NCBI RefSeq assembly: GCF_044324875.1
Contig: NZ_CP172185.1
Strand: one strand, 5' to 3'
Length of the DNA stretch: 64,000 nt
Origin: Escherichia coli
GTDB lineage: Bacteria; Pseudomonadota; Gammaproteobacteria; Enterobacterales; Enterobacteriaceae
Shown: piece by piece, positions 4,134 through 62,157 of the stretch
Layout of the letters: each line of letters starts with the position of its first letter
Position numbering within the stretch: the stretch's first letter is position 1
Translations under genes and position numbers: made by a program
The notes under the pieces: model-generated
Told to the model about the DNA's origin: nothing
The model's input: the letters and a program-made list of their open reading frames with translations, nothing else
The model's database searches: none

Positions 4134-4143
4134 TTCACAGCCA

Positions 4144-4176: not shown

Positions 4177-4177
4177 C

Positions 4178-41583: not shown

Positions 41584-44500
41584 ATGGCAGATAATCCAAA
41601 CCTTTCATCGCCCCTGCCGGACGTGTTTTCACCGGCAACCCGCGACTGGTTTCTTCGCGCCTTTAAACAGCCGACCGCTGTCCAGTCGCAAACCTGGCAT
41701 GTGGCGGCGCGAGGCGAACATGCGCTGGTGATTGCACCGACTGGCTCCGGGAAAACGCTGGCAGCATTTCTCTACGCCCTCGATCAGCTCTTCCGCGAAG
41801 GCGGCGAAGATACCCGCGAGGCGCATAAACGTAAAACCTCACGCATCCTCTATATTTCACCGATCAAAGCTCTGGGCACCGACGTTCAGCGCAACTTGCA
41901 GATCCCGTTACAGGGTATTGCCGATGAACGGCGGCGGCGCGGCGAAACGGAAGTCAATCTTCGCGTGGGGATCCGTACTGGCGATACGCCTGCACAGGAA
42001 CGCAGCAAACTCACCCGTAATCCGCCGGATATTCTGATCACCACACCCGAATCACTCTATCTGATGCTGACCTCCCGCGCGCGCGAAACGCTACGCGGCG
42101 TCGAAACGGTAATTATTGATGAAGTCCACGCGGTAGCGGGCAGTAAACGTGGTGCGCATCTGGCGTTAAGTCTGGAGCGGCTCGATGCGCTGCTCCACAC
42201 CTCAGCACAGCGAATTGGCCTTTCTGCCACTGTACGCTCAGCCAGCGATGTTGCAGCATTTCTTGGTGGCGATCGCCCGGTTACGGTAGTAAACCCGCCC
42301 GCAATGCGCCATCCGCAGATACGGATTGTCGTACCGGTCGCCAATATGGATGATGTCTCATCGGTCGCCAGCGGCACCGGCGAAGACAGCCATGCCGGCC
42401 GAGAAGGCTCCATCTGGCCATATATTGAAACGGGTATCCTTGATGAAGTTTTGCGCCATCGCTCGACCATTGTCTTTACTAATTCACGCGGGCTGGCGGA
42501 AAAACTGACGGCACGATTGAATGAACTTTACGCCGCACGCTTACAGCGTTCCCCGTCTATCGCCGTTGATGCGGTCCATTTCGAGTCGACCTCCGGCGCA
42601 ACCTCTAACCGTGTACAAAATAGCGACATTTTTATTGCCCGCTCACACCACGGCTCCGTCTCTAAAGAACAACGAGCAATCACCGAACAGGCGCTGAAAT
42701 CGGGTGAATTACGCTGCGTGGTCGCAACCTCCAGTCTCGAACTGGGGATTGATATGGGCGCGGTGGATCTGGTGATTCAGGTGGCAACGCCGCTTTCTGT
42801 TGCCAGTGGGTTACAACGCATTGGACGTGCCGGACACCAGGTAGGTGGTATCTCCAAAGGGCTTTTTTTCCCCCGAACCAGGCGTGACTTAGTCGATTCC
42901 GCAGTCATTGTAGAGTGTATGTTCGCAGGCAGGCTGGAAAACCTGACACCGCCGCATAATCCACTCGACGTCCTTGCGCAGCAAACCGTTGCCGCCGCGG
43001 CGATGGATGCATTACAGGTAGACGAATGGTAATCCCGCGTACGCCGTGCCGCACCGTGGAAAGATCTGCCAAGACGTGTTTTTGACGCCACGCTGGATAT
43101 GCTTTCCGGGCGCTATCCCTCTGGCGATTTTTCTGCTTTTCGCCCCAAACTGGTCTGGAACCGGGAGACCGGGATATTGACCGCCCGACCTGGCGCTCAA
43201 TTGTTGGCGGTTACCAGCGGCGGCACCATTCCGGATCGTGGCATGTATAGCGTGTTATTACCCGAAGGTGAAGAACAGGCCGGTTCGCGGCGGGTGGGTG
43301 AACTGGATGAGGAGATGGTATATGAGTCGCGGGTGAACGACATTATCACTCTCGGCGCTACCTCATGGCGGATCCAGCAAATCACCCGCGATCAGGTGAT
43401 TGTGACTCCTGCTCCAGGTCGTTCTGCCCGCCTTCCCTTCTGGCGTGGTGAAGGTAACGGACGTCCGGCAGAATTAGGCGAGATGATCGGCGATTTTCTC
43501 CATTTACTGGCGGATGGCGCGTTCTTTTCCGGGACTATTCCCCCGTGGTTGGCAGAAGAAAATACGATCGCCAATATTCAGGGGTTGATTGACGAGCAGC
43601 GCAACGCGACGGGCATCGTTCCAGGTAGTCGTCATCTGGTCCTCGAACGGTGCCGTGATGAAATTGGTGACTGGCGTATTATTTTGCACTCTCCCTATGG
43701 AAGACGGGTGCATGAACCCTGGGCGCTGGCGATTGCCGGGCGAATACATGCACTATGGGGCGCTGACGCGTCTGTGGTTGCCAGTGATGACGGCATTGTT
43801 GCGCGCATTCCTGACACCGATGGTAAATTGCCTGATGCCGCGATTTTTTTGTTTGAACCAGAAAAGTTGCTGCAAATTGTCCGCGAGGCGGTAGGCAGCT
43901 CGGCACTTTTCGCCGCCCGTTTTCGCGAATGCTCCGCGCGGGCATTATTAATGCCGGGCCGCACGCCGGGCCATCGCACCCCGCTCTGGCAACAACGGCT
44001 GCGCGCCAGTCAGTTGCTGGAAATCGCTCAGGGATATCCGGATTTTCCGGTCATTCTCGAAACACTACGCGAATGTCTGCAAGATGTTTATGATCTTCCC
44101 GCGCTGGAACGTTTGATGCGTCGCCTGAACGGTGGCGAAATTCAAATATCCGATGTAACGACCACTACGCCTTCGCCTTTCGCCGCCAGTTTATTGTTCG
44201 GCTATGTCGCGGAATTTATGTACCAGAGCGACGCCCCGCTGGCAGAGCGCCGGGCATCCGTACTGTCGCTGGACAGCGAGTTACTGCGCAATCTACTCGG
44301 ACAGGTCGATCCGGGGGAATTACTCGACCCGCAGGTCATTCGCCAGGTGGAAGAAGAGTTGCAACGACTGGCTCCTGGCAGAAGAGCGAAAGGTGAAGAA
44401 GGATTGTTCGACCTGCTGCGCGAACTGGGGCCAATGACCGTTGAAGACCTGGCGCAACGACATACAGGCAGCAGTGAAGAGATTGCGTCGTATCTGGAAA

Positions 44501-45297
44501 ATCTTCTTGCAGTAAAACGAATCTTCCCGACCATGATTAGCGGGCAGGAGCGTCTTGCCTGTATGGATGATGCCGCCAGGCTGCGCGATGCTCTCGGCGT
44601 ACGACTACCAGAGTCACTGCCAGAGATTTATTTGCACCGAGTCAGTTACCCGCTTCGCGACCTCTTTCTGCGCTATCTCCGGGCTCATGCTCTGGTCACG
44701 TCTGAACAACTGGCTCATGAGTTTAGTCTCGGTACTGCCATTGTCGAAGAGCAACTTCAGCAACTGCGCGAACAGGGGCTGGTGATGAATCTGCAACAAG
44801 ACATCTGGGTGAGCGATGAAGTATTTCGTCGTCTGCGTTTGCGCTCGCTGCAAGCCGCCAGAGAAGCGACACGTCCCGTTGCGGCCACGACCTATGCGCG
44901 ATTGCTGCTGGAACGTCAGGGCGTATTACCCGCCACCGATGGTAGCCCGGCACTCTTTGCCTCAACATCGCCAGGCGTTTATGAGGGCGTGGATGGCGTG
45001 ATGCGGGTGATCGAACAGCTTGCTGGCGTTGGTTTACCCGCCTCACTCTGGGAAAGCCAGATCCTGCCTGCCCGCGTACGCGACTATTCGCCAGAAATGC
45101 TCGATGAATTACTGGCAACCGGTGCGGTTATCTGGTCGGGGCAAAAAAAGCTGGGTGAAGATGACGGTCTGGTGGCACTGCATCTACAGGAATATGCCGC
45201 AGAATCGTTCACTCCCGCCGAAGCAGATCAGGCGAATCGTTCGGCGCTGCAGCAAGCGATAATCGCTGTTCTGGCTGACGGAGGTGATCAGACATGA
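41584..45297 (+). pseudogene. lhr: ATP-dependent helicase Lhr, inactivated by an in-frame TAA at 43030-43032 and a 3' truncation at the prophage junction
   Basis: ORFs 41584..43032 and 43099..45297 are in the same frame and separated only by TAA; helicase motifs GSGKT and DEVH lie in the first part. The combined length is about 1237 codons against about 1538 expected. Confidence 0.8.
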
Positions 45298-45480
45298 GAT
45301 AAATGAAGGGGGATCCGTGAGATAAATAACGAATTGGAGTGGGTTAACATGGGTTCTGGTGAACAGAACTGAAATTCTTTTCCGCTATACGATAGATAAG
45401 TCGGGCATTGAAATCATCCTTCCTGGCAACTTAGAATCGAGTTTGCTGAAACATGACCCGCAACAAAAAGGATGATTCCA

Positions 45481-45642
45481 ATGACTACTCAAAACAATAA
45501 GCATGATAGCCTGGATTACTCAGAAAAGCCCAAAAGCAAGCACATCGTGACGTTCGAGCGCGATTCCGGTAGAAAAGGAGAATCGTCTTCCTCTGCCAAT
45601 AAAACCACTATGCCGGCAGCCCCTGCCCCAGGGAAAAAATAA
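45481..45642 (+). CDS. Possible small hydrophilic protein (53 aa) at prophage end
   Basis: ATG with AAGGA SD 6 bp upstream; MTTQNNKHDSLDYSEKPKSKHIVTFERDSGRKGESSSSANKTTMPAAPAPGKK. Convergent with the next gene with only 3 bp between stops, so uncertain. Confidence 0.25.
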   Translation: MTTQNNKHDSLDYSEKPKSKHIVTFERDSGRKGESSSSANKTTMPAAPAPGKK

Positions 45643-45645
45643 ACA

Positions 45646-46278
45646 TCATTCATCGTTCGTTGCACGAACGCGCCTGATCTCCACTCTGGCAATCTGATCT
45701 GCTGGAATATAGGTTGCCAGAGCTCCCCAGTACTTATCAACCACGCCTTTATACTCTTCCCATTCGTTACTGCCTGAAGGGCTGCTGTGCGTGACGTAAA
45801 GAACCATATCGCCTTTATTCCCCAGGGTAAACGGACCGTTAGGCCACTCTTCAAAGTTCCCTGGCAGCCGTGACATCATACCGGAACCATCGCGAAGAAT
45901 CACTCTGACCTCGGTAACGCTGAAGCCTGTTTGATCAAACATTGCCTGCCATGCTGAGCTGGTATCGTCAGACCATGAAATATCATTATTCCACAGTAAT
46001 CTGTACATCCATTTGCGACCGTACCTGCGCCACCACGCACCGCATGTAACGGCACACAGAAGTGCTGGTGGTGTTGCCAGCCAGGCATTCAGACCTGCCC
46101 ACATAACAGCCTGGTAAGCCATCATTGCTGTCAGGCCAAAAATCAGCGAAGAAAAAGTCACCTCAATGGGCTTGTGGTGATCCTTCAGTCCCACATTCGC
46201 AATAAAATACCCAATATAGCCACTGGTCAGGGTCACCAGTGTTGCCCATGGCAGATTTAACAACGAAACGTCAAACAT
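45646..46278 (-). CDS. Prophage terminal membrane protein of unknown function (3 predicted TM helices plus about 120-aa soluble domain)
   Basis: Start chosen at MFDVSLLNLPW..., which has a GGGAGA SD; lies downstream of a terminator that follows mor. Confidence 0.6.
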   Translation of the reverse strand: MFDVSLLNLPWATLVTLTSGYIGYFIANVGLKDHHKPIEVTFSSLIFGLTAMMAYQAVMWAGLNAWLATPPALLCAVTCGAWWRRYGRKWMYRLLWNNDISWSDDTSSAWQAMFDQTGFSVTEVRVILRDGSGMMSRLPGNFEEWPNGPFTLGNKGDMVLYVTHSSPSGSNEWEEYKGVVDKYWGALATYIPADQIARVEIRRVRATNDE

Positions 46279-46313
46279 ATTTTCTCCCTGCATCCTGAAT
46301 ACTAAAGAGAGAG

Positions 46314-46349
46314 CATAAAAAAAGCACGGTAAGGGGTCTACCGTGCTTT
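46314..46349 (-). terminator. Rho-independent terminator after mor
   Basis: On the minus strand: GCACGGTA-GACCCCTT-ACCGTGC followed by TTTTTTT. Confidence 0.6.
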
Positions 46350-46392
46350 TATACAATAAGGAGATTTTTGAAAGGACTTTAACAAGCAGGAA

Positions 46393-46791
46393 TTATCTGG
46401 ATTTGTTAACGTCTTTCGTCTCCTCTGGCAGATCTTCATCAAACAACCTGCCCTGCATCCGATCCAGTTCTTCTTTTCTGACCCGCTTAACCACGCTGTA
46501 GACCCACTGAAGCGAAACACCAAACTTGCGGGCCAGTTCGTGGTGGTTGCGTCCGTTAAACTCCCTGAAGATTTCCCGGTCGCGCTGACTGACCTTCCAT
46601 ACCATGCCCATCGGGAAATAAACGTTTTGCCCGCCCCAGACCTGCATCATTCGGTTCGCGACGGCCTGACCAATCTGGTCGGCAATTGCGGGCTCAATAT
46701 CAATAATCTCGCGAACGGTCTCAGAGGTATGCTGTGCCAGCTCCACCAGGAGTTCCGGCCCTTTACTTCGAAACTGATTCAGGTCGCTCAT
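46393..46791 (-). CDS. mor: Mor/C-family transcription activator (Mu middle operon regulator-like)
   Basis: 132 aa with C-terminal HTH (ELARKFGVSLQWVYSVVKR) typical of Mor; last gene of the early operon, after gemA, as in Mu. Confidence 0.75.
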   Translation of the reverse strand: MSDLNQFRSKGPELLVELAQHTSETVREIIDIEPAIADQIGQAVANRMMQVWGGQNVYFPMGMVWKVSQRDREIFREFNGRNHHELARKFGVSLQWVYSVVKRVRKEELDRMQGRLFDEDLPEETKDVNKSR

Positions 46792-47215
46792 GTTTTACTC
46801 CCGCAGCTCTGTGCTGCCACTTCTTCAGTTTCTCAATAACACTGCTTGCCTGTTCAGTATTGAGCCAGCGCAGGGCGCTGATGCCCGTTTCCCGCTTGAT
46901 CCACCGCGCTAATGCATTTTCTGAACGGTCACGAACAATGCCGGCAGCAGCCATTTCAAGCCATAGCGCACGGATTTTCCTGGACTGCGGATGGTTATCC
47001 AGCGGTAAACCGGAGCTGGCTTTTCCGGCAGGCTTAACGCGAAAGCCTTTCCTTTTCATGGATTCCAGCACGCAGTTTAGTTGTGTGGTATCCATTCCTT
47101 TGGTTGAGGCTTTACCGGTCAGCCCCTGTAACATCTGGCGATAGGTGTCTTCATCCATACCCAGTTCATTACGGGCAATATGAATGAGCTGGATAAGACG
47201 TTGTTTAGTCATCAT
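46763..47215 (-). CDS. gemA: GemA-like phage regulatory protein (Mu gp16 family)
   Basis: Core RLIQLIHIARNELGMDEDTYRQML...SRKIRALWLE resembles Mu GemA; start placed at internal Met. Confidence 0.7.
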   Translation of the reverse strand: MMTKQRLIQLIHIARNELGMDEDTYRQMLQGLTGKASTKGMDTTQLNCVLESMKRKGFRVKPAGKASSGLPLDNHPQSRKIRALWLEMAAAGIVRDRSENALARWIKRETGISALRWLNTEQASSVIEKLKKWQHRAAGVKHERPESVSK

Positions 47216-47420
47216 CGTTGCTCCTTTTACCTGCGCCACCGATATAATCGACATATAAAGGAAGCGCCACAGGCCAGCACAGGAACATCACCGACCAGCT
47301 AATCCAGTAGCCGGCACCACTGTAACGTGAATAAAACCCTGAACGGCGGTGCAGTTCAGCAGTACACCAACCGACAAAACAATACCAGAACAGGGCACAT
47401 ACAACAGATTCAGCCGTCAT
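47205..47420 (-). CDS. Small phage membrane protein, hypothetical
   Basis: Hydrophobic 71-aa product from internal Met (MTAESVVCALFWYCFVGW...); the longer upstream extension overlaps the neighbouring gene. Confidence 0.4.
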   Translation of the reverse strand: MTAESVVCALFWYCFVGWCTAELHRRSGFYSRYSGAGYWISWSVMFLCWPVALPLYVDYIGGAGKRSNDDD

Positions 47421-47640
47421 TCTGAATATCCCCCCAACTGATATGAATATTACGGGCAGCAATGACAGGGTCGTTATTCCACCATGCACCTGACATGTAT
47501 TTTTCAACCTGTTCGCGTCCGGCAATAACACCAATTGTGATCCCCGGCCTGACGTTCTTAAAAAAGGCGCGGGCAAAAAGGTATCTGGCAGATATTCGGC
47601 AGGCTTTTAATTTCCGGCTGTTACCTGATAGCGTAATCAT
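47410..47640 (-). CDS. Hypothetical phage early protein
   Basis: 76-aa ORF in an operon-like tandem with overlapping stop/start. Confidence 0.4.
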   Translation of the reverse strand: MITLSGNSRKLKACRISARYLFARAFFKNVRPGITIGVIAGREQVEKYMSGAWWNNDPVIAARNIHISWGDIQNDG

Positions 47641-48320
47641 CTGGCCTCCAGTTTCTGTTGTTCCTGCCCACTGACCGGGCGGTGCAGTCTGACGTTCTGC
47701 CCTTCACGAAACCCCGCATAGCGCGAGGCGTCGCCATTGCGGCTTCTTCCCGGTTTACGCGCCCTGGTGGTTTGCGTCTGCGGGTATTTATGTTCCAGCC
47801 ACTGCTGCATCAGTTCACGCTCATCATCGGTCAGGGCAAAGGACTGTATTTCACTGATAACGGCCAGCACCCAGCCTTCGGCAAACTGGTCTCCACGGCT
47901 GGTGCGGGTGGCGGTTTTTATTCTTTTGTTCTGTGCACTGATATACTGCTGACGCGCCTTTTTCAGCTGACGGGCCAGCACTTCCCAGGTGTATGCAGCC
48001 AGTGCCGCACGTTCCCGGTTGCCGTAGAACCCCACAGACGGATGCGTGCCGGGGTGAATGATGGAGTTAACACCAAATACCTCGCGGATGATGTTCATCA
48101 GGCCTGGCATGTAGCGCGGTGGACGGAGACTGCCTGTCGGCCAGTAGTGACTGATGGTTTCATCAATATCACTCATAGCAATGTCGGAATGTGTGATGCC
48201 GTGAACATCCATCAGTTTACGGGCTCGGCGCAGTGCCAGAGCGGCCTCGTGCGGGTTGCCGGATGCGGCCAGCGCCAGCAACTTTTTCAGTTTCTCAATG
48301 TGTTTATTCTGGTCTGTCAT
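47637..48320 (-). CDS. Hypothetical phage early protein
   Basis: Charged, protein-like composition; start placed at an internal Met to avoid overlap with the upstream gene. Confidence 0.5.
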   Translation of the reverse strand: MTDQNKHIEKLKKLLALAASGNPHEAALALRRARKLMDVHGITHSDIAMSDIDETISHYWPTGSLRPPRYMPGLMNIIREVFGVNSIIHPGTHPSVGFYGNRERAALAAYTWEVLARQLKKARQQYISAQNKRIKTATRTSRGDQFAEGWVLAVISEIQSFALTDDERELMQQWLEHKYPQTQTTRARKPGRSRNGDASRYAGFREGQNVRLHRPVSGQEQQKLEAR

Positions 48321-48532
48321 TGTTCTGTATCTCCGGTATTTTTCTGCCGTTTCCATGCCCGGACAGCGTCGGACAGCTCTTTCAGGCTGTATGCTGCTTT
48401 AAGCTTTTCCCATAACCACTGTGTTGTTATGTGCATCAGCAGGGCAGCCAGGGCTGCCCCCGCACTGAGGCATGTCGCCAGGCCAGTAAGAATCAGTATC
48501 CATGCGGTGATTTCCCTGAGTATGTCAGCCAT
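48317..48532 (-). CDS. Hypothetical small phage membrane protein
   Basis: 71 aa with one hydrophobic helix. Confidence 0.45.
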   Translation of the reverse strand: MADILREITAWILILTGLATCLSAGAALAALLMHITTQWLWEKLKAAYSLKELSDAVRAWKRQKNTGDTEQ

Positions 48533-48546
48533 TGAATGCCTCCCGG

Positions 48547-48843
48547 TTACTCGTTCGTGTAAATCACGCCCAGTCGTGCAGCCAGACGTTCCAGTTTTTT
48601 CTGTTTGTGGAAGTCAATCAGCCGGTCCATCCCCTGAAGGCGCAATTGCTCTGTCATGATTTCCACGTCTGCCAGCTCTGCCGCGAGGTCGCTTTCGCTG
48701 CCCTGTCCGTTCAGATTGCGGGCAGCACTGGCCGCCAGTTCAGCGGCCTCTTCTGTCAGTTTCAGGGCCTGTGCGTCCGGCCCGAAACGCTGCAGGGCCA
48801 GACGGTAGAGGGCGGTGCGGGTGAGTATGGTGTTCCGTGTCAT
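48547..48843 (-). CDS. Hypothetical phage early protein
   Basis: 98-aa ORF in the early operon. Confidence 0.5.
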   Translation of the reverse strand: MTRNTILTRTALYRLALQRFGPDAQALKLTEEAAELAASAARNLNGQGSESDLAAELADVEIMTEQLRLQGMDRLIDFHKQKKLERLAARLGVIYTNE

Positions 48844-48852
48844 GCCGCGCCC

Positions 48853-49125
48853 TCAGTGCTTCCGGCTGACGGTGATGTGCAGGCCGCCTTCTGCAGTGGT
48901 TTCCATCCGGTACGGCACCTCATGCTCTGCCGTGTGGGTGAGTGTGTTCATCAGTACCTGCAGGGCAGCCGCCTTTCCGTTGGTTGCCACAATGGCCTGT
49001 GTGGTCATGCTGATTAGCGCCGTCAGGACGTGCTTCACATCGGTGAGGTCGCGGCATTCACACTCGTTGACATAGTGTTCAACAAGGGTTCGGGTGCGCT
49101 GTCGTGCTTCCTGTGGGGTAATCAT
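48853..49125 (-). CDS. Hypothetical phage early protein
   Basis: 90-aa ORF. Confidence 0.5.
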   Translation of the reverse strand: MITPQEARQRTRTLVEHYVNECECRDLTDVKHVLTALISMTTQAIVATNGKAAALQVLMNTLTHTAEHEVPYRMETTAEGGLHITVSRKH

Positions 49126-49316
49126 TGCGAGTCCTCCCTGTCAGGGCGGGAGAATTCCATGACGGGCACGTCTGCCGAAAAATGCTGGCTGCAGTACGGG
49201 CAGACCAGGGTGACGCGTACCGCAGGGATGTGGTATTTACCGGACATCACGGCGATGGCGCTGTGAAAACGCAGGGCTGTTATATCCCTCTCGCACTGAA
49301 TACATTTAAATATCAT
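49122..49316 (-). CDS. Small zinc-ribbon-like phage protein
   Basis: 64 aa with two CxxC pairs (CIQC ... CPYC). Confidence 0.45.
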   Translation of the reverse strand: MIFKCIQCERDITALRFHSAIAVMSGKYHIPAVRVTLVCPYCSQHFSADVPVMEFSRPDREDSQ

Positions 49317-49413
49317 GATTTAATTCTCCTCTGTTTCCGGCGTGCAGAAGCCCGCGGCGCTGACGCCGGAATAAAAAAGAAAATGTTTTTATTAAATAAT
49401 TAACGTGGTGTGT

Positions 49414-49944
49414 TTACTGCACATCCTGCTCAAAAGGAATTATTGAAAAATCCTCAATGTCGCTTTTAATGGAAATACCGGGAATATTTTTCACGGCCTC
49501 TTTTTCATTCAGGATAGCGTCTTTATTTATTTCCTCTTTTACACGAATAAAGCGCTCAAGCCCCAGACGTCTCAGTAATTCAATAACATTATCCGCCCCA
49601 CGGATACTGACTGATGGCGGACGGTTTCGCCACTGCACCTCGCCGGTGGTAAGGTTAGCGAACTTCACCTTCCCGTTGCCGGTCAGTTCATCACGGTGCG
49701 CCTCACACCATGTCTGGATACCGGACTGCAGTTCGGCCATGCGTTTTTTCAGGCTCTCGGTGAGCGGGGCATAACGTGCGGTGATATCGCCAATGGCGTC
49801 ATTCATTTCTGTTTCAGCCCTGACCAGTTCACGTTGTGCGTCACCGAGTAGTCTGATTCCCTCAATGACCTCTTCGCGTGTCCCTGGTACCCAGAGTGCC
49901 GCTGCGGCCTTGATACGTTTTGCCCCTTTTGTACTTTTTGCCAT
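49414..49944 (-). CDS. gam: Host-nuclease inhibitor protein Gam (Mu Gam family)
   Basis: 176 aa; MAKSTKGAKRIKAAAALWVP...LETEMNDAI...DFSIIPFEQ matches my recollection of Mu Gam along its whole length. Confidence 0.9.
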   Translation of the reverse strand: MAKSTKGAKRIKAAAALWVPGTREEVIEGIRLLGDAQRELVRAETEMNDAIGDITARYAPLTESLKKRMAELQSGIQTWCEAHRDELTGNGKVKFANLTTGEVQWRNRPPSVSIRGADNVIELLRRLGLERFIRVKEEINKDAILNEKEAVKNIPGISIKSDIEDFSIIPFEQDVQ

Positions 49945-49971
49945 ATTTTATGATTTCTCCGGTTGTGCTGA

Positions 49972-50241
49972 TTACCACAAAGATTCCGGCCACACGACGC
50001 GACAGCCGTGCAGTTCGAAAACGCCCTGACGGAAATATCCCCTGTGGTCATGTCCGGTATACAGATAACAGGCCTTTCCCTGCTCAAGCATGCGCATGCA
50101 ATGCGCACTCCGGGAAACGCGGATGACAGGTTTGTTACCCCTGATGGTGATGCTTTGTACATCCGTGTTCGTCGCCTTAAGCGCCATAATGGCTGACTGC
50201 ACTTTGCTGATTTGCTGGTTGATACCTGTGGTGGATTTCAT
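49972..50241 (-). CDS. Hypothetical phage early protein (position of Mu kil)
   Basis: 89-aa ORF directly downstream of the B-like gene. Confidence 0.45.
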   Translation of the reverse strand: MKSTTGINQQISKVQSAIMALKATNTDVQSITIRGNKPVIRVSRSAHCMRMLEQGKACYLYTGHDHRGYFRQGVFELHGCRVVWPESLW

Positions 50242-50243
50242 TA

Positions 50244-51437
50244 TTAAACTCCTTTGACAACGTCAGCGTTGACCTGTGGAACCCCGATTTCAGCGGCCAG
50301 ATTCATGGCGGCTATTACCAGGTTACTGACGGCCAGCGGATACAGCAGGCTGACCATATTTTTACGATGACTTCCCGGATTGCTCAGGCGGGCACGTATG
50401 GCATCCACTGCGCTGGCGTCCATAATGTCCGTCAGTTGTTTACCGGCCCGTTGCAGTTTGAACGTCAGAAATTCTTCAAGGTTATTGTCCAGAGGCAGAA
50501 GTTCGACCACCTCACAGCGCTGAACGACTTCACGGACTTCCATATTGCGTTCAGACAGTTTTGTCGCCAGTTCCGGCTGGCCAATCAGCACGATGGACAG
50601 CAGTTTTTTGAAACCGGACTCCAGCTCAAAAAAGCGTTTGAGGTGTTTCAGTGTCGGAATGGGCAGACTGTGGGCCTCCTCAATCACCAGAACGTGGCTG
50701 AACCCCGCCTGGCTGCTGTCTTTCAGGACGCGATGCAACTGGCGAAAGCGGGCGTCCTGACTGCGTCTGATGCTTTCCAGTGGTGCGATGGTACTGATAA
50801 TGGCTTCGGCAATAGCTGCTGCCTTCAGGGTTTTCCCTTTCACATCGTTGTCTTCCATAGCGATGATGTATGGCTCGATAACAATTACCGGCGCATTCTC
50901 GCGGTTAATACGTTCAGTCAGGTCGCGGCGCAGCGTGGATTTACCCGCACCGGACTCACCGATGACGGCCATAAACCCACCATGACGGGCTGTCTGGTAC
51001 AGCGCCTCACGCACGTAGCGAATGTCCGGGGTGGTGAACACATCATCAGAACCCTGCATGGCTTCATCGGCGAACGGGTCACGGAAAAGACCAAACGCTT
51101 TTTTGGTTGCTGGAAATAACACCTGTTTTTTGAGTAACATATTCTCTTCCTCACTGAGGCTCGTTTTATCTGTGGTACCCGCTGTACGGGGCGTGGCCGC
51201 GCCCTGTACAGCATCAAAACTCTTCGTTGTATCAATCCCCTGACTTTCCAGCCAGGACGCAAGACGCCGGCGCACTTCTCCGGGGCTGGTGCGGGGCCAC
51301 GCGTTATGATTCACAATCTGGGCCAGCGTGGCCTCAGAAACATCGACAGCTCTCGCCGCCACCGCCTGTGGAATACGGGCCTCTTTCAGTTGCTGCTTCA
51401 GTACCAGCATGTTTCCCTCCTCAGTTGCCGTTAACAA
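50244..51437 (-). CDS. Transposition helper ATPase (MuB-like, AAA+)
   Basis: 397 aa; N-terminal HTH-like region then Walker A GESGAGKST and Walker B VLVIEEAH; start overlaps the transposase stop. Confidence 0.8.
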   Translation of the reverse strand: MLTATEEGNMLVLKQQLKEARIPQAVAARAVDVSEATLAQIVNHNAWPRTSPGEVRRRLASWLESQGIDTTKSFDAVQGAATPRTAGTTDKTSLSEEENMLLKKQVLFPATKKAFGLFRDPFADEAMQGSDDVFTTPDIRYVREALYQTARHGGFMAVIGESGAGKSTLRRDLTERINRENAPVIVIEPYIIAMEDNDVKGKTLKAAAIAEAIISTIAPLESIRRSQDARFRQLHRVLKDSSQAGFSHVLVIEEAHSLPIPTLKHLKRFFELESGFKKLLSIVLIGQPELATKLSERNMEVREVVQRCEVVELLPLDNNLEEFLTFKLQRAGKQLTDIMDASAVDAIRARLSNPGSHRKNMVSLLYPLAVSNLVIAAMNLAAEIGVPQVNADVVKGV

Positions 51438-53190
51438 TGCTGATAACGCTGCTGCGGGCCGGCGTGGTCAGCGTGGCCATGACTTCATCCAGTGCGGCTT
51501 CCGGTACGCCGTCCGGGTACTGTGCTGTTAACTGGCGGTAATGTTCCGGCGTCCAGGTCAGGCCGTCGGCGCTGAACTTATCGCGCAGGGCTTTCGCGGC
51601 CTCCACATGAGTCATGGGACGCTGTTCAGTGCGCGGTCCGCGTACGTCAGAGGCCTGACCACGCTTCGGTATACAGGCCGGAAGTGTGGCGTCATCAATA
51701 TGTTTATACGGGTCAAGCCGCCCGCCGAACGGCAGCGCCTTCGCCTTGCGTGCGGCAGCTGCATCTGCGGCGTTGTCTGTACCGGTGACCAGCGCTTCGG
51801 TTTCTTTTGCCGCCATCTGCGCCGGGGTTTCCGGCAGGGCTTTGTAACTTTCGCCAAATACCGCCGCGCCTTCAGCAAAGCCAAACTCGTTCTTTCTGAC
51901 CTCTTCGACCAGGAAGAACGTCTCGTGGCCGTCCTCACCGGTCAGAACCACCTGTGCCACATCGCTGCGCCACGGGTTACGGGTAATCATCAGTTTTTCA
52001 CCGACCAGTACGCCCGGTACCGTTGATACGTCAAATTCAGTGCCCCGGAACGAGACACGAAGTTTTGGCGTGACTTTGCGGAGTTCTGGTGCCGCCACAG
52101 CCAGTTCACGACATACCTCAACGGAAGGCGCTTTTTTCAGCTGCTCAGCAGTAATCTTCAGCCAGATATCCGTGCGGGTTTTACCGTGGCGGCTGTGAAC
52201 AGCCGTGGCGTTAAAGTGGCTGCGCCATTTCGCGGCCAGCGCGTTGAGTTCTTCCAGACTGTGAACCGGCCGGAACTTCAGACCCGGCTCCAGCTTGCGT
52301 TCGATAATGTCACGCGCCTTTTCCACCTGTCCGGTGGCGCGGGCGTTATGCGGCTTGTGCGCTATCAGGTCGATGCCCAGTGAGCGGCACATGTTTTTCG
52401 TCATACCCGCGGTGTTTGCCGAGCCGGGGTCGAGATAGAGTATTTTTGGCACGCCGTGCAGCACGTCTGCGCCGCCACGCTCCTGCATGGCGTTGATAAG
52501 CACAGAACACAGGTTCTCACCGGATTCCGCACCCGTCACATACTCAACGTAAATCCAGCCGCTGGCATGGTCGGTAATCTCGTAACTCCACACGCGGTCA
52601 CTGGCGATACGGGCAAGGTTAGCGGGCTTGTTTTTGTAGAATTTCGCGCTGTCCATCACCTGCAGCCCTTTATGTCCATTGCTCAGGTAGTAAAGCGTGC
52701 AGAGTGAGGCGTCAATCTGCCAGACATGATTGGGGTGCAGACTGGCCACTTCGGTATGCGGTGCAGGGGCATCCAGTTGTTCCGGGTGCAGGCCATAGTT
52801 ACGCAGGGCACGACTGATGGCATCTTCGGACAACGGGAAAAACTCACCGGTGGTTTCATCTGTTCTGCCTGCGGAGATAAAGCCGTTAGCCCGCAGGGTT
52901 TCCACTGCATCCGCGATGGAATAGAGACGCTTACCGTTCTTGCGGGTGGCCTCACGTAGTGTGGCAGATATCAGCGCGGCTTCGTCGCGGGTCAGGGTGC
53001 TGCGTCCGGCATCGGCGCGTTTTTTGCGTTTATCAGTCACAGAGACCTCCTTCAGCCTGCGCAGCAGAGTGGCGCGGGACATGCCAAGTTCAGCACAGGC
53101 AGCGTCGTATATTGCACCGCGTTTACCATGCCCCGCATTACGTGCCGCGCGGGCTGTTTCAACAAGTTTTTCAGTCAGTGCCGGGGTCAT
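51421..53190 (-). CDS. DDE (rve-type) transposase of the transposable phage, TnpA
   Basis: 589 aa; N-terminal HTH then an integrase-core-like region (HVWQIDASL...LYLDPGSANTA); followed by the AAA+ partner as in Mu A-B. Confidence 0.8.
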   Translation of the reverse strand: MTPALTEKLVETARAARNAGHGKRGAIYDAACAELGMSRATLLRRLKEVSVTDKRKKRADAGRSTLTRDEAALISATLREATRKNGKRLYSIADAVETLRANGFISAGRTDETTGEFFPLSEDAISRALRNYGLHPEQLDAPAPHTEVASLHPNHVWQIDASLCTLYYLSNGHKGLQVMDSAKFYKNKPANLARIASDRVWSYEITDHASGWIYVEYVTGAESGENLCSVLINAMQERGGADVLHGVPKILYLDPGSANTAGMTKNMCRSLGIDLIAHKPHNARATGQVEKARDIIERKLEPGLKFRPVHSLEELNALAAKWRSHFNATAVHSRHGKTRTDIWLKITAEQLKKAPSVEVCRELAVAAPELRKVTPKLRVSFRGTEFDVSTVPGVLVGEKLMITRNPWRSDVAQVVLTGEDGHETFFLVEEVRKNEFGFAEGAAVFGESYKALPETPAQMAAKETEALVTGTDNAADAAAARKAKALPFGGRLDPYKHIDDATLPACIPKRGQASDVRGPRTEQRPMTHVEAAKALRDKFSADGLTWTPEHYRQLTAQYPDGVPEAALDEVMATLTTPARSSVISIVNGN

Positions 53191-53205
53191 AGCTTGTCTT
53201 CCCTG

Positions 53206-53523
53206 TTATCCGATTCTGGCGGCAATTTTTCTGGCACGGTCGCGCAGGGTTTCGCCATCGCAGGTTTTCACCACGTTATTTACCGGTTGCGGCGCAACTG
53301 CCGGGCGCAATGCTGACTGATGCTGCAGACGTCTTATCTGCTGCATCAGCATCACTTCCATCGTCAGTACAAACGGATGCGCCTCCTGTGCGGGTACGCA
53401 GATTTCACCGGAAGGTGTCACCACGCGGAAACCCTGCACCATCTCCGGCAGCAGATTACACAGTGCGTGCCCCAGTGCCTCCGGGCTGTCCATCAGGATA
53501 TTTTGTGTGTTATCCGTGTTCAT
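53206..53523 (-). CDS. Hypothetical phage early protein
   Basis: 105-aa ORF between the Ner-like gene and the transposase. Confidence 0.45.
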   Translation of the reverse strand: MNTDNTQNILMDSPEALGHALCNLLPEMVQGFRVVTPSGEICVPAQEAHPFVLTMEVMLMQQIRRLQHQSALRPAVAPQPVNNVVKTCDGETLRDRARKIAARIG

Positions 53524-54440
53524 TACTGCATGCCCTCCGGTCGGTTGATTTCAGGCTCCGGTTCGGTCAGCCATGCGGGGACATCGTTACCCGATGGTGC
53601 GGCATCAAGGTCGAACGTCTCACGCAATGCATGAACACTGCGTTCAATCTGGCAGACCAGACCGGCCATGAAATCTCTGGGGGTATCAATCATGTTTTTA
53701 CTGCAGTATTCACACAGGGTTTCAAAGGCACCGGAGAGCCGGACGGCGATGGCAGATTCCGCCTCAACCGCTAATGCGGTCACTTCCGCCCGCAGCTTCT
53801 TCACCTCTTCATCAGGCTCAGGCGGTTGAATACGGGATTTCTTCTCCAGTTTTGTGGCCAGTTCGTTGATTTTTTCGTCCTTTCCGGCAAGCACCTGTTG
53901 CTGAGCTGCGTTAGTTTCGCGCGCTTCACGCAGGGCCTGGCGAAGTTCACGTACTGACATGCGATCAACATCATCAAGCGTCAGGCCGGCAACTGTGCCG
54001 CCGTCGGCCAGTTCGGCAAGGTCTTCATCGTCTTCAGCAACAAGTTCAAATAATTTTGCCTTACCCAAAAGCGACAACGTTGTCGCTTTTGGCTCTAGTT
54101 TTGGTGAAAGGTATTTCAAAGATGCTTTCATCATTCGTTGTGCTGCGCGCACGTGCAAACCAAGTTGTTCTTCTACAATTCCAACAAAGTCCCCGTGTGG
54201 CTCATTTTCTTTTAAGATGATCAGCCGTTTACCCGCTTCCAGCATAGATTCAGCACTCTGCGCCATATAAAAACGTGCTTCGTGAACGATGCGATCACGT
54301 TCATAAGGCAGTCCATCACCAAACTGCTGCATGATCTCCATGCGATGCTGTGTCATGGCATTCAGGCTGACGTTGAGATCATCCGACAGCGGTACCTCGG
54401 CGTTCAGTTCAGTGTTAACCGGTGATTTGGTGCGTCCCAT
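53523..54440 (-). CDS. Hypothetical acidic, helix-rich phage early protein
   Basis: 305 aa with long charged helical segments; family not recognised. Confidence 0.55.
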   Translation of the reverse strand: MGRTKSPVNTELNAEVPLSDDLNVSLNAMTQHRMEIMQQFGDGLPYERDRIVHEARFYMAQSAESMLEAGKRLIILKENEPHGDFVGIVEEQLGLHVRAAQRMMKASLKYLSPKLEPKATTLSLLGKAKLFELVAEDDEDLAELADGGTVAGLTLDDVDRMSVRELRQALREARETNAAQQQVLAGKDEKINELATKLEKKSRIQPPEPDEEVKKLRAEVTALAVEAESAIAVRLSGAFETLCEYCSKNMIDTPRDFMAGLVCQIERSVHALRETFDLDAAPSGNDVPAWLTEPEPEINRPEGMQ

Positions 54441-54450
54441 TGATTACTCC

Positions 54451-54765
54451 TTACAAACGACTACCTGAAATGACACGTTGGTTGATTTCGTTAATGCGAT
54501 CCTGTGCACGTGCCATCTCGTTACTGTGGGCCATGGCGATCTGCAGCAACTGGATGCCCGGTGCGAAACGCCCGTTTTCCAGTTTCAGGGCCAGTCCTTC
54601 TTCAATGAGGGTGTTGAGTGCCCGGTTGATGTTTGCCGGTGACTCGTGCAGTGCTGCCGCCAGTTCACCATTGGAAATACCGTTCAGGGCATGACCGCGC
54701 AGCGCTTTGAGTACCCGGAGGATGCGACTGCCGGAGCTTGAAACATTCGTCTTACTCATCTGCAT
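54451..54765 (-). CDS. Putative winged-helix DNA-binding protein
   Basis: 104 aa; SRILRVLKAL...GISNGELAAALHESPANINRALNTLIEEGLA resembles IclR/MarR-type HTH regions; AGAGG SD present. Confidence 0.5.
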   Translation of the reverse strand: MQMSKTNVSSSGSRILRVLKALRGHALNGISNGELAAALHESPANINRALNTLIEEGLALKLENGRFAPGIQLLQIAMAHSNEMARAQDRINEINQRVISGSRL

Positions 54766-54811
54766 ACCTCTTTTGCGATATGTGATAACCTTTTACAAAG
54801 AATCAAAATAT

Positions 54812-55000
54812 TCAGGCTGCCTGAGCTGTTGATTTCAGCCCCAGTTTCACGGCGATTTCATGGGATTTACCGTAACGTGCTTTGCTCTGCCCATTGAGAA
54901 CGCGGTATACCTCATTGCGGTTGTAGCCGTTTTCTTCTGCCCAGCGGGTGAAAGTGATCCCGCGCTGGCGGAAGAGAGCTTTGACTTGTTCTGCAGTCAT
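54812..55000 (-). CDS. Ner-like (Cro-analog) DNA-binding protein
   Basis: 62 aa; strong SD AAGGAG 8 bp upstream; spacing of G-T/S, NG, and KxxIAxxLG residues parallels Ner/Nlp; divergent from the repressor. Confidence 0.6.
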   Translation of the reverse strand: MTAEQVKALFRQRGITFTRWAEENGYNRNEVYRVLNGQSKARYGKSHEIAVKLGLKSTAQAA

Positions 55001-55100
55001 CGTTGTCTCCTTTGTTGATGCAATGATGTTTGCCTTATGTGTGATAGATTATGGTGCAGATTATCTCACCAGTCAACTTAAAGAGTGCAGAAAAACTCAC
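55001..55100. promoter_or_regulatory. Divergent promoter/operator region between Ner-like gene and repressor
   Basis: 100-bp intergenic region containing GTGATAGATTAT and an inverted copy AGATTATCTCAC. Confidence 0.45.
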
Positions 55101-55439
55101 ATGATCGGGTTACGTATTAAAGAAGAAAGAGAGCGTCTATCTCTTACACAGCAAGGGTTGGCTGATGCTATCGGTGTGGCAAAGAGAACTTTTATTGATT
55201 GGGAAAAAGATCGCACTTCTCCTACTGCAGTGCAGTTATCTGCACTATCAGAAATCGGTGTAGATGTTTTGTATGTAGTTACTGGGGTGCGGAGTCAGCC
55301 TGTTGTTGCACCTTATATGTCACAAGAAAAGAAAGAGTTAATGGATGCATTCGACGAGATGAGCCCCGAACAACGGAGGGCAATTCTTGAGGTCGGCAAA
55401 GTCTTCATTCAACCCAAACCAAGCAAACTCGCAGGCTGA
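55101..55439 (+). CDS. Phage repressor, HTH_XRE (Cro/C1-type)
   Basis: Start at internal ATG (MIGLRIKEERERLSLTQQGLADAIGVAKRTFIDWEKDRTSP), 112 aa. Confidence 0.7.
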   Translation: MIGLRIKEERERLSLTQQGLADAIGVAKRTFIDWEKDRTSPTAVQLSALSEIGVDVLYVVTGVRSQPVVAPYMSQEKKELMDAFDEMSPEQRRAILEVGKVFIQPKPSKLAG

Positions 55440-55524
55440 TTCTGACCTGGACAGAAAGGACAGGTGGTTGATCTGGATGCTTTCAGAAAACGCCGTCAGT
55501 AGCATGGCAGAAATCGGCGGGCTT

Positions 55525-55560
55525 ACCGGAAAGCACTGTACTTTCCGGTTATGGCTTTTA
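55525..55560. terminator. Terminator between repressor and dam
   Basis: Hairpin ACCGGAAAG..CTTTCCGGT followed by a T-rich tract. Confidence 0.45.
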
Positions 55561-56322
55561 GAAATTGCAGATCACCAGCTCACGGCGTGGAGTTGATTTG
55601 CCTGCCAGACTGTAGTTGATGTTCACTGTCTGTATGTTCAGTCCAGTGAACACCTCGCGCATCTGCGGGATGTCGTTCACCGAAATTATCATCTTTCCTC
55701 TGATGCACCGGGCCAGCTCTGCCAGCCGCGAGTAGTTCCCTTCAGGAAAATCCACACCATAGCCTTCTGTACCCAGATACGGCGGGTCACAGTAGAACAG
55801 CGTGTGCGGACGGTCATAGCGCTCAATGCACTGTTGCCAGTCCATGTGTTCTATCACCGTTCTGGAAAGCCGCAGGTGTGCCGCTGACAGTTCTTCCTCG
55901 ATACGCAGCAGGTTGAAGCGTGGCGGGGATGTGGTGGAGGTGCCGAAGCTGTGCTCTGCCACCTTGCCGCCAAACGCCTGCTTCTGGAGGTAGTAGAACC
56001 GTGCTGCACGCTGGATATCCGTCAGTGTTTCTGTCGGGGTGATCTGCAGCCATTTGTAGATCTGCCGGCTGACCAGCGCCCATTTGAACTGGCGGACAAA
56101 TTCTTCCAGATGATGTTTTACCACCCGATACAGATTTACCAGTTCACCATTGATATCGTTAATGACTTCGAGCTTACCAGGTGTCTTAAGAAAATAGAGC
56201 GCTGCTGCGCCGCAGAACGGCTCCACGTAACATTCATGCGCCGGAAACAGCGGCAGGATGTGTTTTGCCAGGCGACGTTTGCCACCAATCCATGGAACGA
56301 TGGGTAATGTCTGCATTTTCAT
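55558..56322 (-). CDS. dam: DNA adenine methyltransferase (Dam-like, no adjacent restriction gene)
   Basis: 254 aa; SAM motif EPFCGAAALYF and catalytic DPPY. Confidence 0.85.
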   Translation of the reverse strand: MKMQTLPIVPWIGGKRRLAKHILPLFPAHECYVEPFCGAAALYFLKTPGKLEVINDINGELVNLYRVVKHHLEEFVRQFKWALVSRQIYKWLQITPTETLTDIQRAARFYYLQKQAFGGKVAEHSFGTSTTSPPRFNLLRIEEELSAAHLRLSRTVIEHMDWQQCIERYDRPHTLFYCDPPYLGTEGYGVDFPEGNYSRLAELARCIRGKMIISVNDIPQMREVFTGLNIQTVNINYSLAGKSTPRRELVICNF

Positions 56323-56514
56323 AATCTGTAAGCCTTTTACAATTATTAAAAATATGGCAGGCTAGTCTGGTCTCGCGAGACTGACTGAACCCCGGTCGGC
56401 TCACAGCGCATTCCTGTGGGACGATGGCCAGCCCGGTGGGTCCGAAGCACCGGGCTGGTCGTTCTTTCATGATGCGGCAGGGATGAAGTGATTTCTGTTA
56501 ATGTGGTTTAGGGA

Positions 56515-56730
56515 TTATCCGGGGCGATTTTCTGACCTTATCTGGTCCAGGGCATAAGTGATCCCTTCTGCAAAAACAGAAGTATCAAACTGCTTTTGTA
56601 TTTCCTGAAAATGAACAGTGGCACGACAGACACTCAGTTCTCCGCGATGTAACCGGATAATATCTTCCAGAACATTGTTCACTGCTTCGGCACGGCGCTG
56701 ATGTTCTGTTAACGTTAATCGGGGATTCAT
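56515..56730 (-). CDS. Hypothetical 71-aa phage protein
   Basis: Strong SD AAGGAG 6 bp upstream of ATG; no family recognised. Confidence 0.55.
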   Translation of the reverse strand: MNPRLTLTEHQRRAEAVNNVLEDIIRLHRGELSVCRATVHFQEIQKQFDTSVFAEGITYALDQIRSENRPG

Positions 56731-57107
56731 GATGCACTCCTTAAATGATGATTTTTATGTACTCACCGGCAAAATATTCTGCCGATTACTGAACACGCAT
56801 CCGGCTCCTCAGGTTTTGATTTATTCTGGTTTTTTCGATATCCCGGACCAGGTTGATCACGACAGAAAAAGTGCCGGTATTTTATTGATACGCTGATATG
56901 GCTTCGGGATAACAGCTATATTCGTTACTCTCAGTTGCTGGCTGTGGGAGCGGCTGATGTCGTCCTCACGGAAAAAACGCTCTGTCTGCTCAATGCCATG
57001 CCGACCTTTCTGCAGCCCCGGCCCGTACCATTTAAAGAGTCACTTCTGGATGCAGTAAAAACCGGTGAAAATGCAGTCATCGCTGAATGCGTATCCCGGA
57101 TTATGCG

Positions 57108-57656
57108 TTACGTGTTTAATGAACGTAAGTGAGGTTTATCCGCTGTCTGCATAATCCCGATAGCCAGTGCGAGGGGAAGCAATTCCGGGGAAACTCTTTC
57201 AAACAGCGATTCCCATTCTCCTCTCGCCATCACTCTGTCCAGCCCGCCCTCCAGCTGCATTTCAGCAATCTTCCTGATTTCCCGGAACAACGCCGCTTTG
57301 ATCTCTTCATGCTCAGCTTTATTTTCCGGTGTCAGAATGTATTCGTCGAAGAACCGGGGAGGCTGGTTAACGGGGGGCATGTTCACCGGGATGTGTTCCT
57401 GTATCCCGTACTCCGGGGCTGAAAAACATTTTGTTGTCTGACCGGTGAGTTTGCGTAACACCTTCATGAGTTGCTCCTGAAGCAGCTCATTCGTCCGACA
57501 GATACGCTCGTCGTCCACAACTGCGGCATCGACAATGACGCTTTTTCCAAATTCCTTTTTCACCATCTCTTTTATACGCGTCAGAACGTAACTTTTACCG
57601 CTGCCTACAGGCCCGGACACTCTGACGGTGATGGTCGGCTTCGGTGTGACTGTCAT
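57108..57656 (-). CDS. P-loop NTPase-like protein of unknown function (182 aa)
   Basis: Start at internal ATG with SD AAGGAGA 7 bp upstream; Walker A GPVGSGKS at residues 14-21; divergent from the lysis cassette. Confidence 0.6.
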   Translation of the reverse strand: MTVTPKPTITVRVSGPVGSGKSYVLTRIKEMVKKEFGKSVIVDAAVVDDERICRTNELLQEQLMKVLRKLTGQTTKCFSAPEYGIQEHIPVNMPPVNQPPRFFDEYILTPENKAEHEEIKAALFREIRKIAEMQLEGGLDRVMARGEWESLFERVSPELLPLALAIGIMQTADKPHLRSLNT

Positions 57657-57787
57657 TCTGTATCTCCTTTGTGAGTGATCCAGCGTGTATTCTGCATACC
57701 CCGAACACGCCTCTCTCTTAACGCGCTTTAAAATCCTCCGCGCCACGCTTTTGCCATGCTGTCTCCACACAACAAGGAGACATTTTC

Positions 57788-58138
57788 ATGAAACCATTCA
57801 CTTCCCTTATCGTTGACGTACAAAAAACCCGCCTGCGTGGATGGCTTGTTGCGGCCGTGCTGCTGCTCCTCATCATCGCGCTGGTCTCACCCCAGCAGTT
57901 GCCGGTGGTGGTGTACAAGCTCTCTCTCATCTCCCTCGCCGCCGTGCTCGGCTACTGGCTGGACCGCTCACTCTTCCCGAAGGCCCGTCCGGGGCAGTAC
58001 CTGAAGCATGACGAGCGCCTCATGGCTGAGGGGCGCTGGCCCGTACAGACCGGCCTTCACCTGGTGTTTTCTGCTGCGTTAATCCGCCGTGCACTGATTG
58101 TTGCAGCTGTCTGTCTGGCTGTTGCGATGGGGCTTTAA
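57788..58138 (+). CDS. Putative holin (membrane protein, first late/lysis gene)
   Basis: 116 aa with 2-3 hydrophobic helices; AAGGAGA SD; immediately precedes the endolysin. Confidence 0.55.
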   Translation: MKPFTSLIVDVQKTRLRGWLVAAVLLLLIIALVSPQQLPVVVYKLSLISLAAVLGYWLDRSLFPKARPGQYLKHDERLMAEGRWPVQTGLHLVFSAALIRRALIVAAVCLAVAMGL

Positions 58139-58140
58139 TC

Positions 58141-58875
58141 ATGAACTGGCCACAGAGCACCTGGATTGTATGCATGTCCCTGAAACTGGCTTTCGAAGCC
58201 TTTCTGGTCTTCATCAGAACCGAACGCCTGTCAGTCCGTGTCGGGACCTTTCTGGTTCATATGGCATGGGTATTCTTTGTCGCAATGTTGCTCTGGTGTG
58301 GCGGCTTCTTCAGTCAGGCCCGCGCAGCGCAGCCTCCGCAGGCTGCGCTGCAGTATCGCGATGATGTGATCCGTAATGCCCGGCTTGAATGGGGGCTGTC
58401 TGCGCCGGTGGCCGATTTCGCCGCGCAACTGCATCAGGAAAGCGGCTGGCGGACTGATGCGGTCTCGCCGGTGGGCGCTCAGGGGCTGGCGCAGTTTATG
58501 CCCGCCACCGCTGACTGGATAAGCCAGTTGATGCCGGCGTTGAGCAGTCGTGAGCCGTTTAATCCGGCATGGGCCATCCGGGCGCTGGTCAGCTATGACC
58601 GCTGGCTGTGGCAGCGCATCAGCGCCGCCAGTGACTGCGAGCGTATGGCCATGACACTGTCGGGCTATAACGGTGGTCTGGGTTGGGTACAACGGGACAG
58701 GCGGCTCGCATCACAGAAAGGTCTGGACAGCACCCGCTGGTTCGGACATGTCGCCACGGTGAATGCCGGACGCAATGCTGCCAGCTGGCGGGAGAACCGC
58801 CATTATCCGCAGCGCATCCTGCACGAACTGGCCCCCCGTTATCTGACATGGGGGGGCGGCAGCTGTGTGGACTAA
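58141..58875 (+). CDS. Endolysin, lytic transglycosylase (SLT domain), possibly signal-anchored
   Basis: QLHQESGWRTDAVSPVGAQGLAQFMP matches the SLT catalytic E-S...GLxQ motif; hydrophobic N-terminal segment. Start codon uncertain. Confidence 0.75.
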   Translation: MNWPQSTWIVCMSLKLAFEAFLVFIRTERLSVRVGTFLVHMAWVFFVAMLLWCGGFFSQARAAQPPQAALQYRDDVIRNARLEWGLSAPVADFAAQLHQESGWRTDAVSPVGAQGLAQFMPATADWISQLMPALSSREPFNPAWAIRALVSYDRWLWQRISAASDCERMAMTLSGYNGGLGWVQRDRRLASQKGLDSTRWFGHVATVNAGRNAASWRENRHYPQRILHELAPRYLTWGGGSCVD

Positions 58876-60733: not shown

Positions 60734-60749
60734 CAGAAGGAACAACAGT

Positions 60750-62123: not shown

Positions 62124-62157
62124 ACGCGTTGCTGGATGAACGGGAAGGATTACAGAA

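Follow-up and report, generated by a model that had tools for sequence, protein, structure and literature searches.

The window, i.e. the whole 64-kb stretch of Escherichia coli DNA that was analysed, carries the first four-fifths of lhr, directly followed by part of a prophage; the features of both are listed in Table 1. The early genes of the prophage form a leftward operon, which starts from a lysis/lysogeny switch situated ~10 kb inside the element and comprises the genes of the transposase TnpA, of the AAA+ ATPase, of the Gam-family inhibitor and of GemA, mor being the leftmost. From ~57.8 kb onward, the late genes are read rightward; they include holin, transglycosylase, Mu-like head and P2-like tail genes.

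Between the left end and mor, two ORFs of 53 and 210 aa occupy ~1.1 kb, compared with only 365 bp at this place in BcepMu. Neither of them had a match in NCBIfam or PADLOC, and it is possible that they are morons. As for the 2.6-kb IS21-family element, it is the sole break of collinearity with the NR301 prophage and, by its position in the spanin-like gene, it probably cripples lysis. At the opposite extremity of the phage, as seen in sister prophages, a Gin-like serine recombinase adjoins the right end (L003 11981-13707; L005 36422-38148; L006 36480-38764; L008 6208-8452). The tail-fibre and assembly genes are differently arranged or inverted among the sister copies, which points to an invertible host-range segment.

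Table 1. Features of the lhr locus and of the prophage part contained in the window (positions are those of the window)
Feature	Position	Strand	Evidence
lhr, 5' four-fifths (nt 1-3701 of 4617), pseudogene	41584..45284	+	Gapless alignment to K-12 and EC17GD31 lhr, translation, synteny
CGGAGG, predicted left copy of the 6-bp target duplication (lhr nt 3696-3701)	45279..45284	.	Inferred from five other insertions
Prophage part inside the window, 18.7 kb	45285..64000	.	99.7-99.9% collinear with the NR301 prophage
Prophage left terminus, 5'-TGATCAGACATGAGATAAATGAAGGGGGATCCGTGAGATAAAT, terminal TG and two direct repeats	45285..45327	+	Six insertions; matching offsets in the right, BcepMu and B3 ends
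Site L1, CATGAGATAAAT	45293-45304	+	
TGA ending the truncated lhr frame, within phage site L1	45295..45297	+	Frame reads ...A D G G/D Q T *
Site L2, CGTGAGATAAAT	45316-45327	+	
Inner conserved left-end part	45366..45452	+	Holds TGAAAT (45370), TGAAAT (45409) and TGAAAC (45447)
53-aa ORF, phrog_15726	45481..45642	+	Hypothetical in related prophages; PHROG match
210-aa ORF, phrog_12870	45646..46278	-	PHROG match
mor, Mor/C-type late transcription activator	46393..46791	-	phrog_532 at 3.7e-45; Pfam Mor; annotation
gemA/gp16-family gene	46763..47212	-	Annotation, PHROG
Gam-family host-nuclease inhibitor	49414..49944	-	Annotation; PF07352
AAA+ transposition ATPase, MuB/TnpB functional analogue (annotated ExeA family)	50244..51410	-	phrog_296 'DNA transposition protein' 5e-93; Pfam AAA_22
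DDE (rve) transposase TnpA, BcepMu/B3 family, 589 aa	51421..53190	-	Pfam rve 3e-8; phrog_310 1e-146
Lysis/lysogeny switch	54812..55439	.	Annotation of collinear prophages, ORFs; position as BcepMu genes 16/17 (PMC2771037)
62-aa DNA-binding protein, leftward, part of the switch	54812-55000	-	
HTH repressor candidate, divergent rightward, part of the switch	55101-55439	+	
IS21-family element (istA/istB, ISSso4-like) in a phage Rz/spanin-like gene	58966..61602	+	99.8% identity to annotated IS21 copies; CAAAAG flanks

The junction between lhr and the prophage

A preliminary description of this DNA had placed a prophage inside lhr and had suggested aligning the gene with intact alleles. Alignment to the lhr of K-12 and EC17GD31 is gapless, with 103 and 50 mismatches, respectively, and with both alleles the similarity ceases at 45284, i.e. 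at lhr nt 3701 of 4617; the same phage end was found at many other loci (see below), so that the placement of a prophage within the gene holds. At the junction, the intact alleles read ...GCTGACGGAGG/AGCCTGGTTTGC (AGCCTGG) vs. ...GCTGACGGAGG/TGATCAGACATG in the window. The prophage begins at 45285 with 5'-TGATCAGACATGAGATAAATG, and the lhr frame extends 10 nt into the phage end, its last four sense codons (G-D-Q-T) and its TGA being phage-derived or straddling the junction. The frame does close at this TGA, as had been stated, and the shortfall of about 300 codons then announced amounts to 305. The boundary itself, formerly put near 45295, at the TGA, has to be moved upstream by 10 nt, to 45285.

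The lhr frame, which had been described as free of stops up to that point, contains a nonsense codon: at codon 483 (43030-43032), TAC of the intact alleles is replaced by TAA (Y483*), independently of the prophage. The Y483* allele is also present in two Logan assemblies, SRR31073000 and ERR14764776. In this genome, lhr is a doubly inactivated pseudogene, through Y483* and through the insertion; the latter cuts Lhr after residue 1233, with loss of the C-terminal winged-helix domain (PF23234 in intact fragments).

When the 44300-46800 segment was compared by megablast with 5,426 complete E. coli genomes, ~4,900 of them matched lhr up to query position 985 (= 45284), and the NR301 prophage matched at 100% from query position 985 onward. 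The lhr half and the phage half were joined in none of the 5,426 genomes, and a scan of the GTDB representative genomes gave no match to the left lhr/phage junction. Since inspection was confined to the 64-kb window, one might think of an assembly chimera, or of an lhr paralogue with an intact lhr elsewhere. The junction is, however, no assembly artefact: it is found again in the independent Logan short-read assembly SRR31073000, 100% identical to window positions 31584-53032 (21.4 kb), a segment that spans both the junction and Y483*. Moreover, the fragment stands in the native gene order (nemR-nemA-gloA-rnt-lhr) and the break matches, to the base, the phage terminus of other genomes, which leaves a chimera or a paralogue with a negligible probability.

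Insertion sites, target duplication and transposase family

The left end of the prophage (45285-45680) is present in 117 records (~117 complete E. coli genomes), at full length and with an identity of 98-100%; the loci are unrelated and include kefF, yfaV, clbG, fadM and hydN-hycI. An 85%-identical variant of this end (DEF2) is inserted in xylR. In six insertions of independent origin, TGATCAG is preceded by G, T, G, A, G and G, respectively; since this base varies, the element starts exactly at the T of 45285. The boundary, which had been thought impossible to fix without the other end, was therefore fixed by comparing independent insertions.

Concerning the right end, it was located in NR301 from the break of homology with genomes devoid of the prophage. 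This copy reads CATATG-TGATCAG...GCGCATCA-CATATG, and the empty site of strain 21AR0275 has a single CATATG. The same termini were found in MS1737, 98194, GIMC1410 and ECAMP047, flanked by TCCTGT, GTTGCG, CCACGA and GCGCGG, respectively. Each of the five resolved copies, with a complete length of 37.7-38.3 kb, is thus bounded by TGATCAG...GCGCATCA and by a different 6-bp direct repeat (5/5). Because the base following ...CATCA differs among the copies, the duplication is of 6 bp and not of 5 bp, the size given in the preliminary description. The termini of the element are 5'-TG...CA-3', the left one lying at 45285 in this genome and the right one being known from the five sister insertions.

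For the lhr copy, the right junction, beyond the window, is predicted to read ...ATTTATCGCGCGGCGCATCA/CGGAGG/AGCCTGGTTTGC..., after which lhr nt 3702-4617 and then grxD should come. The right end would be located ~40.4-41.0 kb after 45285 (~85.6-86.3 kb in window-equivalent positions), a distance obtained by adding the 2.6-kb IS21 to the 37.7-38.3 kb of the phage, and an estimated 21.6-22.3 kb of prophage would remain beyond the window end. An exact-pattern scan of the GTDB representative genomes for this predicted junction (GCGCGGCGCATCA + CGGAGG + AGCCTGG) gave no match, and when the ORF predicted at the right junction served as protein query, the only matches were Lhr fragments resulting from unrelated frameshifts, none of them with a phage-derived leader. 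One candidate for the right junction, P0010, turned out to be a frameshifted lhr without prophage.

The diversity of insertion sites refutes a site-specific entry into lhr mediated by an integrase, in which the terminal repeats would be arm sites of an att site. All that speaks for such an entry is that short repeats are found close to a prophage boundary. Against it, the identical end occupies dozens of loci that have nothing in common, nor do their 6-bp flanks, and no tyrosine or serine integrase was found at the ends, the sole serine recombinase being the Gin-like invertase located beside the tail-fibre genes. The probability left to this explanation is minute.

As for the transposase, tblastn gave 68% identity between TnpA and BcepMu gp09 and 56% with the B3 transposase A, over 97-99% of the length, and TnpA is 98.8% identical to its counterpart in Escherichia phage PhiKM. 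In Pfam, the rve core domain was the only one detected, with none of the Mu-specific domains, and in NCBIfam only sub-threshold IS481 and IS21 matches were obtained. No MuA chain was present among the PDB sequence matches to TnpA at E ≤ 1, and Mu was absent from the 69 phage records having a TnpA homologue. The AAA+ ATPase, whose gene adjoins that of TnpA, is the counterpart of BcepMu gp08.

These data also bear on the view that a true Mu-family prophage ends at 45285, with a MuA-type transposase, MuA sites L1-L3 and a 5-bp duplication. The 5'-TG at the end, the Mor, GemA and Gam homologues and the random transposition agree with it, but it is refuted by the 6-bp duplications found in 5/5 insertions and by the transposase family, i.e. 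an rve domain only, no MuA among the PDB matches, and BcepMu and B3 as best phage relatives. In addition, the early operon is inverted relative to that of Mu, and an 8-kb megablast against the phage collection did not retrieve Mu. A MuA-type end is consequently very unlikely. From the earlier proposal of a Mu-type end beginning with 5'-TG, the transposable phage and the TG are to be retained, and the family is to be changed from Mu to BcepMu/B3.

Position 45285 is thus most probably (with a probability of about 0.93) the exact left end of a 38-kb BcepMu/B3-type transposable myovirus prophage, with an rve transposase of the Tn552-related group, inserted between lhr nt 3701 and 3702. As the element is of the BcepMu/B3 type, and not of the Mu type, the duplication expected in lhr is of 6 bp rather than 5. 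The element is of a known kind, widespread in E. coli, only the lhr insertion site being new, and nothing here challenges current understanding. For annotation purposes, the end of lhr and the start of the prophage are fixed to the base, and the lhr gene of this lineage is dead, having been hit twice.

Terminal repeats and the inner left-end region

The motif TGAGATAAAT is present at 45295-45304 and 45318-45327, on the same strand and 23 bp apart, which, counted from the tip, corresponds to nt 11-20 and 34-43. Its degenerate form, GMGATAWWT, has seven matches in the 64-kb window when both strands are considered, two of which are the L1/L2 pair. Read inward from the tip, the left end is TGATCAGACATGAGATAAATGAAGGGGGATCCGTGAGATAAATAACG and the right end, taken from the sister copies, is TGATGCGCCGCGCGATAAATGCGCTCTATCTTGTGCGATAAATGGCA; GATAAAT cores are found at nt 13-19 and 36-42 in both ends, the right-end copies being inverted. 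In each end, YGMGATAAAT forms two direct sites, one covering nt ~9-20 and the other nt ~32-43. The clear sites are two per end; weak GATAGATAA-like candidates were also detected at left +103 and right +143. In the 85%-identical DEF2 variant, nt 1-43 of the end are kept and nt 44-80 have diverged. A blastn-short search for inverted repeats of the left end, run against a wrong NR301 stretch, returned noise only.

The same layout is found, in register, in two other phages. The BcepMu ends read ...GGTGAGATATTTC...CGCGCGATATTTC on the left and ...GGCGCGATATTTC...CGCGCGATAAATT on the right, and those of B3 ...AGTGAGAAATAC...GCGCGATAAAG and ...GGCGCGAAATTT...GCGCAATAAATG, respectively. Phage phiE255 was left out of this comparison, its record being permuted with a start that is not at the phage termini. 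Mirrored at both tips and kept across phages with 56-68% identical transposases, the TGAGATAAAT pair is a putative set of transposase end sites. The preliminary description had seen that this repeat starts at the TGA stop of lhr and had compared it to reiterated transposase sites; both copies are indeed there, and their identical offsets at the two ends, alike in BcepMu and B3, speak for the proposed role.

The repeats could instead act mainly as a pac signal or, close to the left end, as operators for a regulator of the phage. In Mu, the left end contains pac, the repeats are upstream of the small rightward ORF at 45481, and their proposed role as transposase sites in the E. coli phage comes from sequence comparison. 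Against this, neither a pac signal nor an operator would need mirroring at both tips, and the sites recur at the right tip, at equal distance, in the three phages. A main function of this type appears improbable; it and a role as transposase sites are not mutually exclusive.

For the BcepMu/B3-type transposition favoured here, a course of events can be proposed from what is known of Mu, B3 and Tn552. TnpA would bind L1/L2 and R1/R2, pair the ends and nick 3' of the terminal CA; together with the AAA+ ATPase, acting in target capture, it would then link the ends to phosphates of the target with a stagger of 6 bp, and, after gap repair, a copy of CGGAGG would flank the element on each side. The ends of the E. 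coli, Burkholderia and Pseudomonas phages give YGMGAWAWWT (nt ~9-20 and ~32-43) as consensus of the presumed TnpA sites, which could help the automatic delimiting of such prophages.

GATC (Dam) sites are present at the tip (TGATCA, 45286-45289) and between L1 and L2 (GGATCC, 45312-45315), and the phage encodes a DNA adenine methylase (55558-56322, minus strand). The DEF2 variant, with TGATGAG, has lost the GATC of the tip, which BcepMu does not have either.

A relic of the left end, ~145 bp long and unannotated, was observed in ~140 records, mostly APEC ColV-type plasmids. In one of them (L013 2501-2644; NZ_CP059908.1), it is placed between a LysR-family gene and IS remnants. The plasmid relic is equivalent to window positions 45294-45438, with 89.7% identity, and includes L1, L2 and the TGAAAT region. 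As it is devoid of the last 9 nt of the tip, TGATCAGAC, it probably does not function as an end.

Further inside the left end, the three TGAAAY hexamers are spaced by 39 and 38 bp. Three such hexamers within 90 bp make one of only two clusters of this kind in the window (shuffle mean of 0.05). The first TGAAAT is contained in a 19-nt block (45366-45384, GAACTGAAATTCTTTTCCG; +82 to +100 of the left end), which is found again, as GAAATGTAATTCTTTTTCA, in the sister copies at 69-87 nt from their right end (e.g. L003 11975-11993). The right-end copy has the same genome orientation and is hence inverted relative to the tip. The left end of the DEF2 variant has a TGTAAT version of the block. As the entire stretch of nt 84-170 is kept in this 85% variant, conservation gives the hexamers no special standing.

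The TGAAAT-type repeats, which had been counted among the possible transposase sites, are present as described, but they bear no resemblance to the terminal site consensus, and this comparison provided no evidence for such a function. The region could correspond to an accessory site, to pac or to a region holding the promoter of the 53-aa ORF (45481). A tentative and rather unlikely proposition is that 45366-45452 works, in this group of phages, as an accessory element not described so far, be it pac, a site for a host factor or a transposase site of a third class; if this were true, the ~145-bp relics of the APEC ColV-type plasmids might keep some activity. The second TGAAAY cluster (54837-54865, minus strand; 11-12 bp spacing) was considered as a regulatory link and rejected: it falls within the 3' coding part of the gene of the 62-aa DNA-binding protein (…HEIAVKLGLKS…) and is probably a coincidence.

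Comparison with known transposable phages

Phage PhiKM (PQ738613.1) and the prophages of ~117 genomes (NR301, MS1737, 98194 and ECAMP047 among them) display 98-100% nucleotide identity in both the early region and the left end, and share the gene order and the TGATCAG...GCGCATCA termini, with 6-bp duplications in the prophages. The lhr copy differs from them by its insertion site, occupied in 0/5,426 complete genomes, and by the IS21 in the spanin-like gene. As for the PhiKM record, the initial 1,148 nt of the left end have no match in it.

The genus threshold is ~70% genome-wide nucleotide identity. An 8-kb megablast of the early region retrieved PhiKM, KP12 and Phi06_2974 B, and not BcepMu (NC_005882, Bcepmuvirus), which has no megablast-level nucleotide similarity to the E. 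coli phage. With a TnpA 68% identical at the protein level, the element is best classified, from these comparisons, as a relative of Bcepmuvirus standing outside the genus.

BcepMu, whose gp09 is annotated as a 'Tn552/IS1604 rve transposase', resembles the E. coli element by its leftward early arm, in which GemA and Mor are encoded next to the left tip, and by its rightward late arm with P2-like tail genes. It is described as a two-arm phage with TG...CA ends and a transposase of the Tn552-IS1604 type (PMC2771037, PMC2628397). Two GMGATAWWT sites per end, at nt ~11-20 and ~34-43, are common to both phages. The E. coli phage differs by the ~1.1 kb with two extra ORFs that separates the left end from mor, and by its Gin-like invertase and invertible tail-fibre genes near the right end, where BcepMu has an acyltransferase; BcepMu is reported to be without a tail-fibre inversion system (PMC2771037).

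With B3 (Beetrevirus), the element shares the inverted early operon (PMC5977238), the 6-bp duplication and the TG-CA ends (PMC8705779) and, in register, the layout of two sites per end. The early operon of B3 is inverted relative to that of Mu (PMC5977238). According to PMC8705779, B3/Tn552-family transposases generate 6-bp duplications vs. 5 bp for Mu, TG-CA ends being general. B3 is a siphovirus, whereas the E. coli element has a contractile P2-like tail module.

Finally, the likeness to Mu resides in the transposable lifestyle, the TG...CA ends, the reiterated end sites, the Mor, GemA and Gam homologues, the association of a transposase with an AAA+ partner, the Gin-like invertase and the Mu-like head module. 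The differences are that the E. coli transposase is not MuA, that the duplication is of 6 bp vs. 5 bp in Mu, and that the early operon has the opposite orientation, the left tip of the E. coli phage being occupied by Mor, read outward, and that of Mu by the repressor; Mu also has three sites per end, compared with two clear ones in the E. coli phage.
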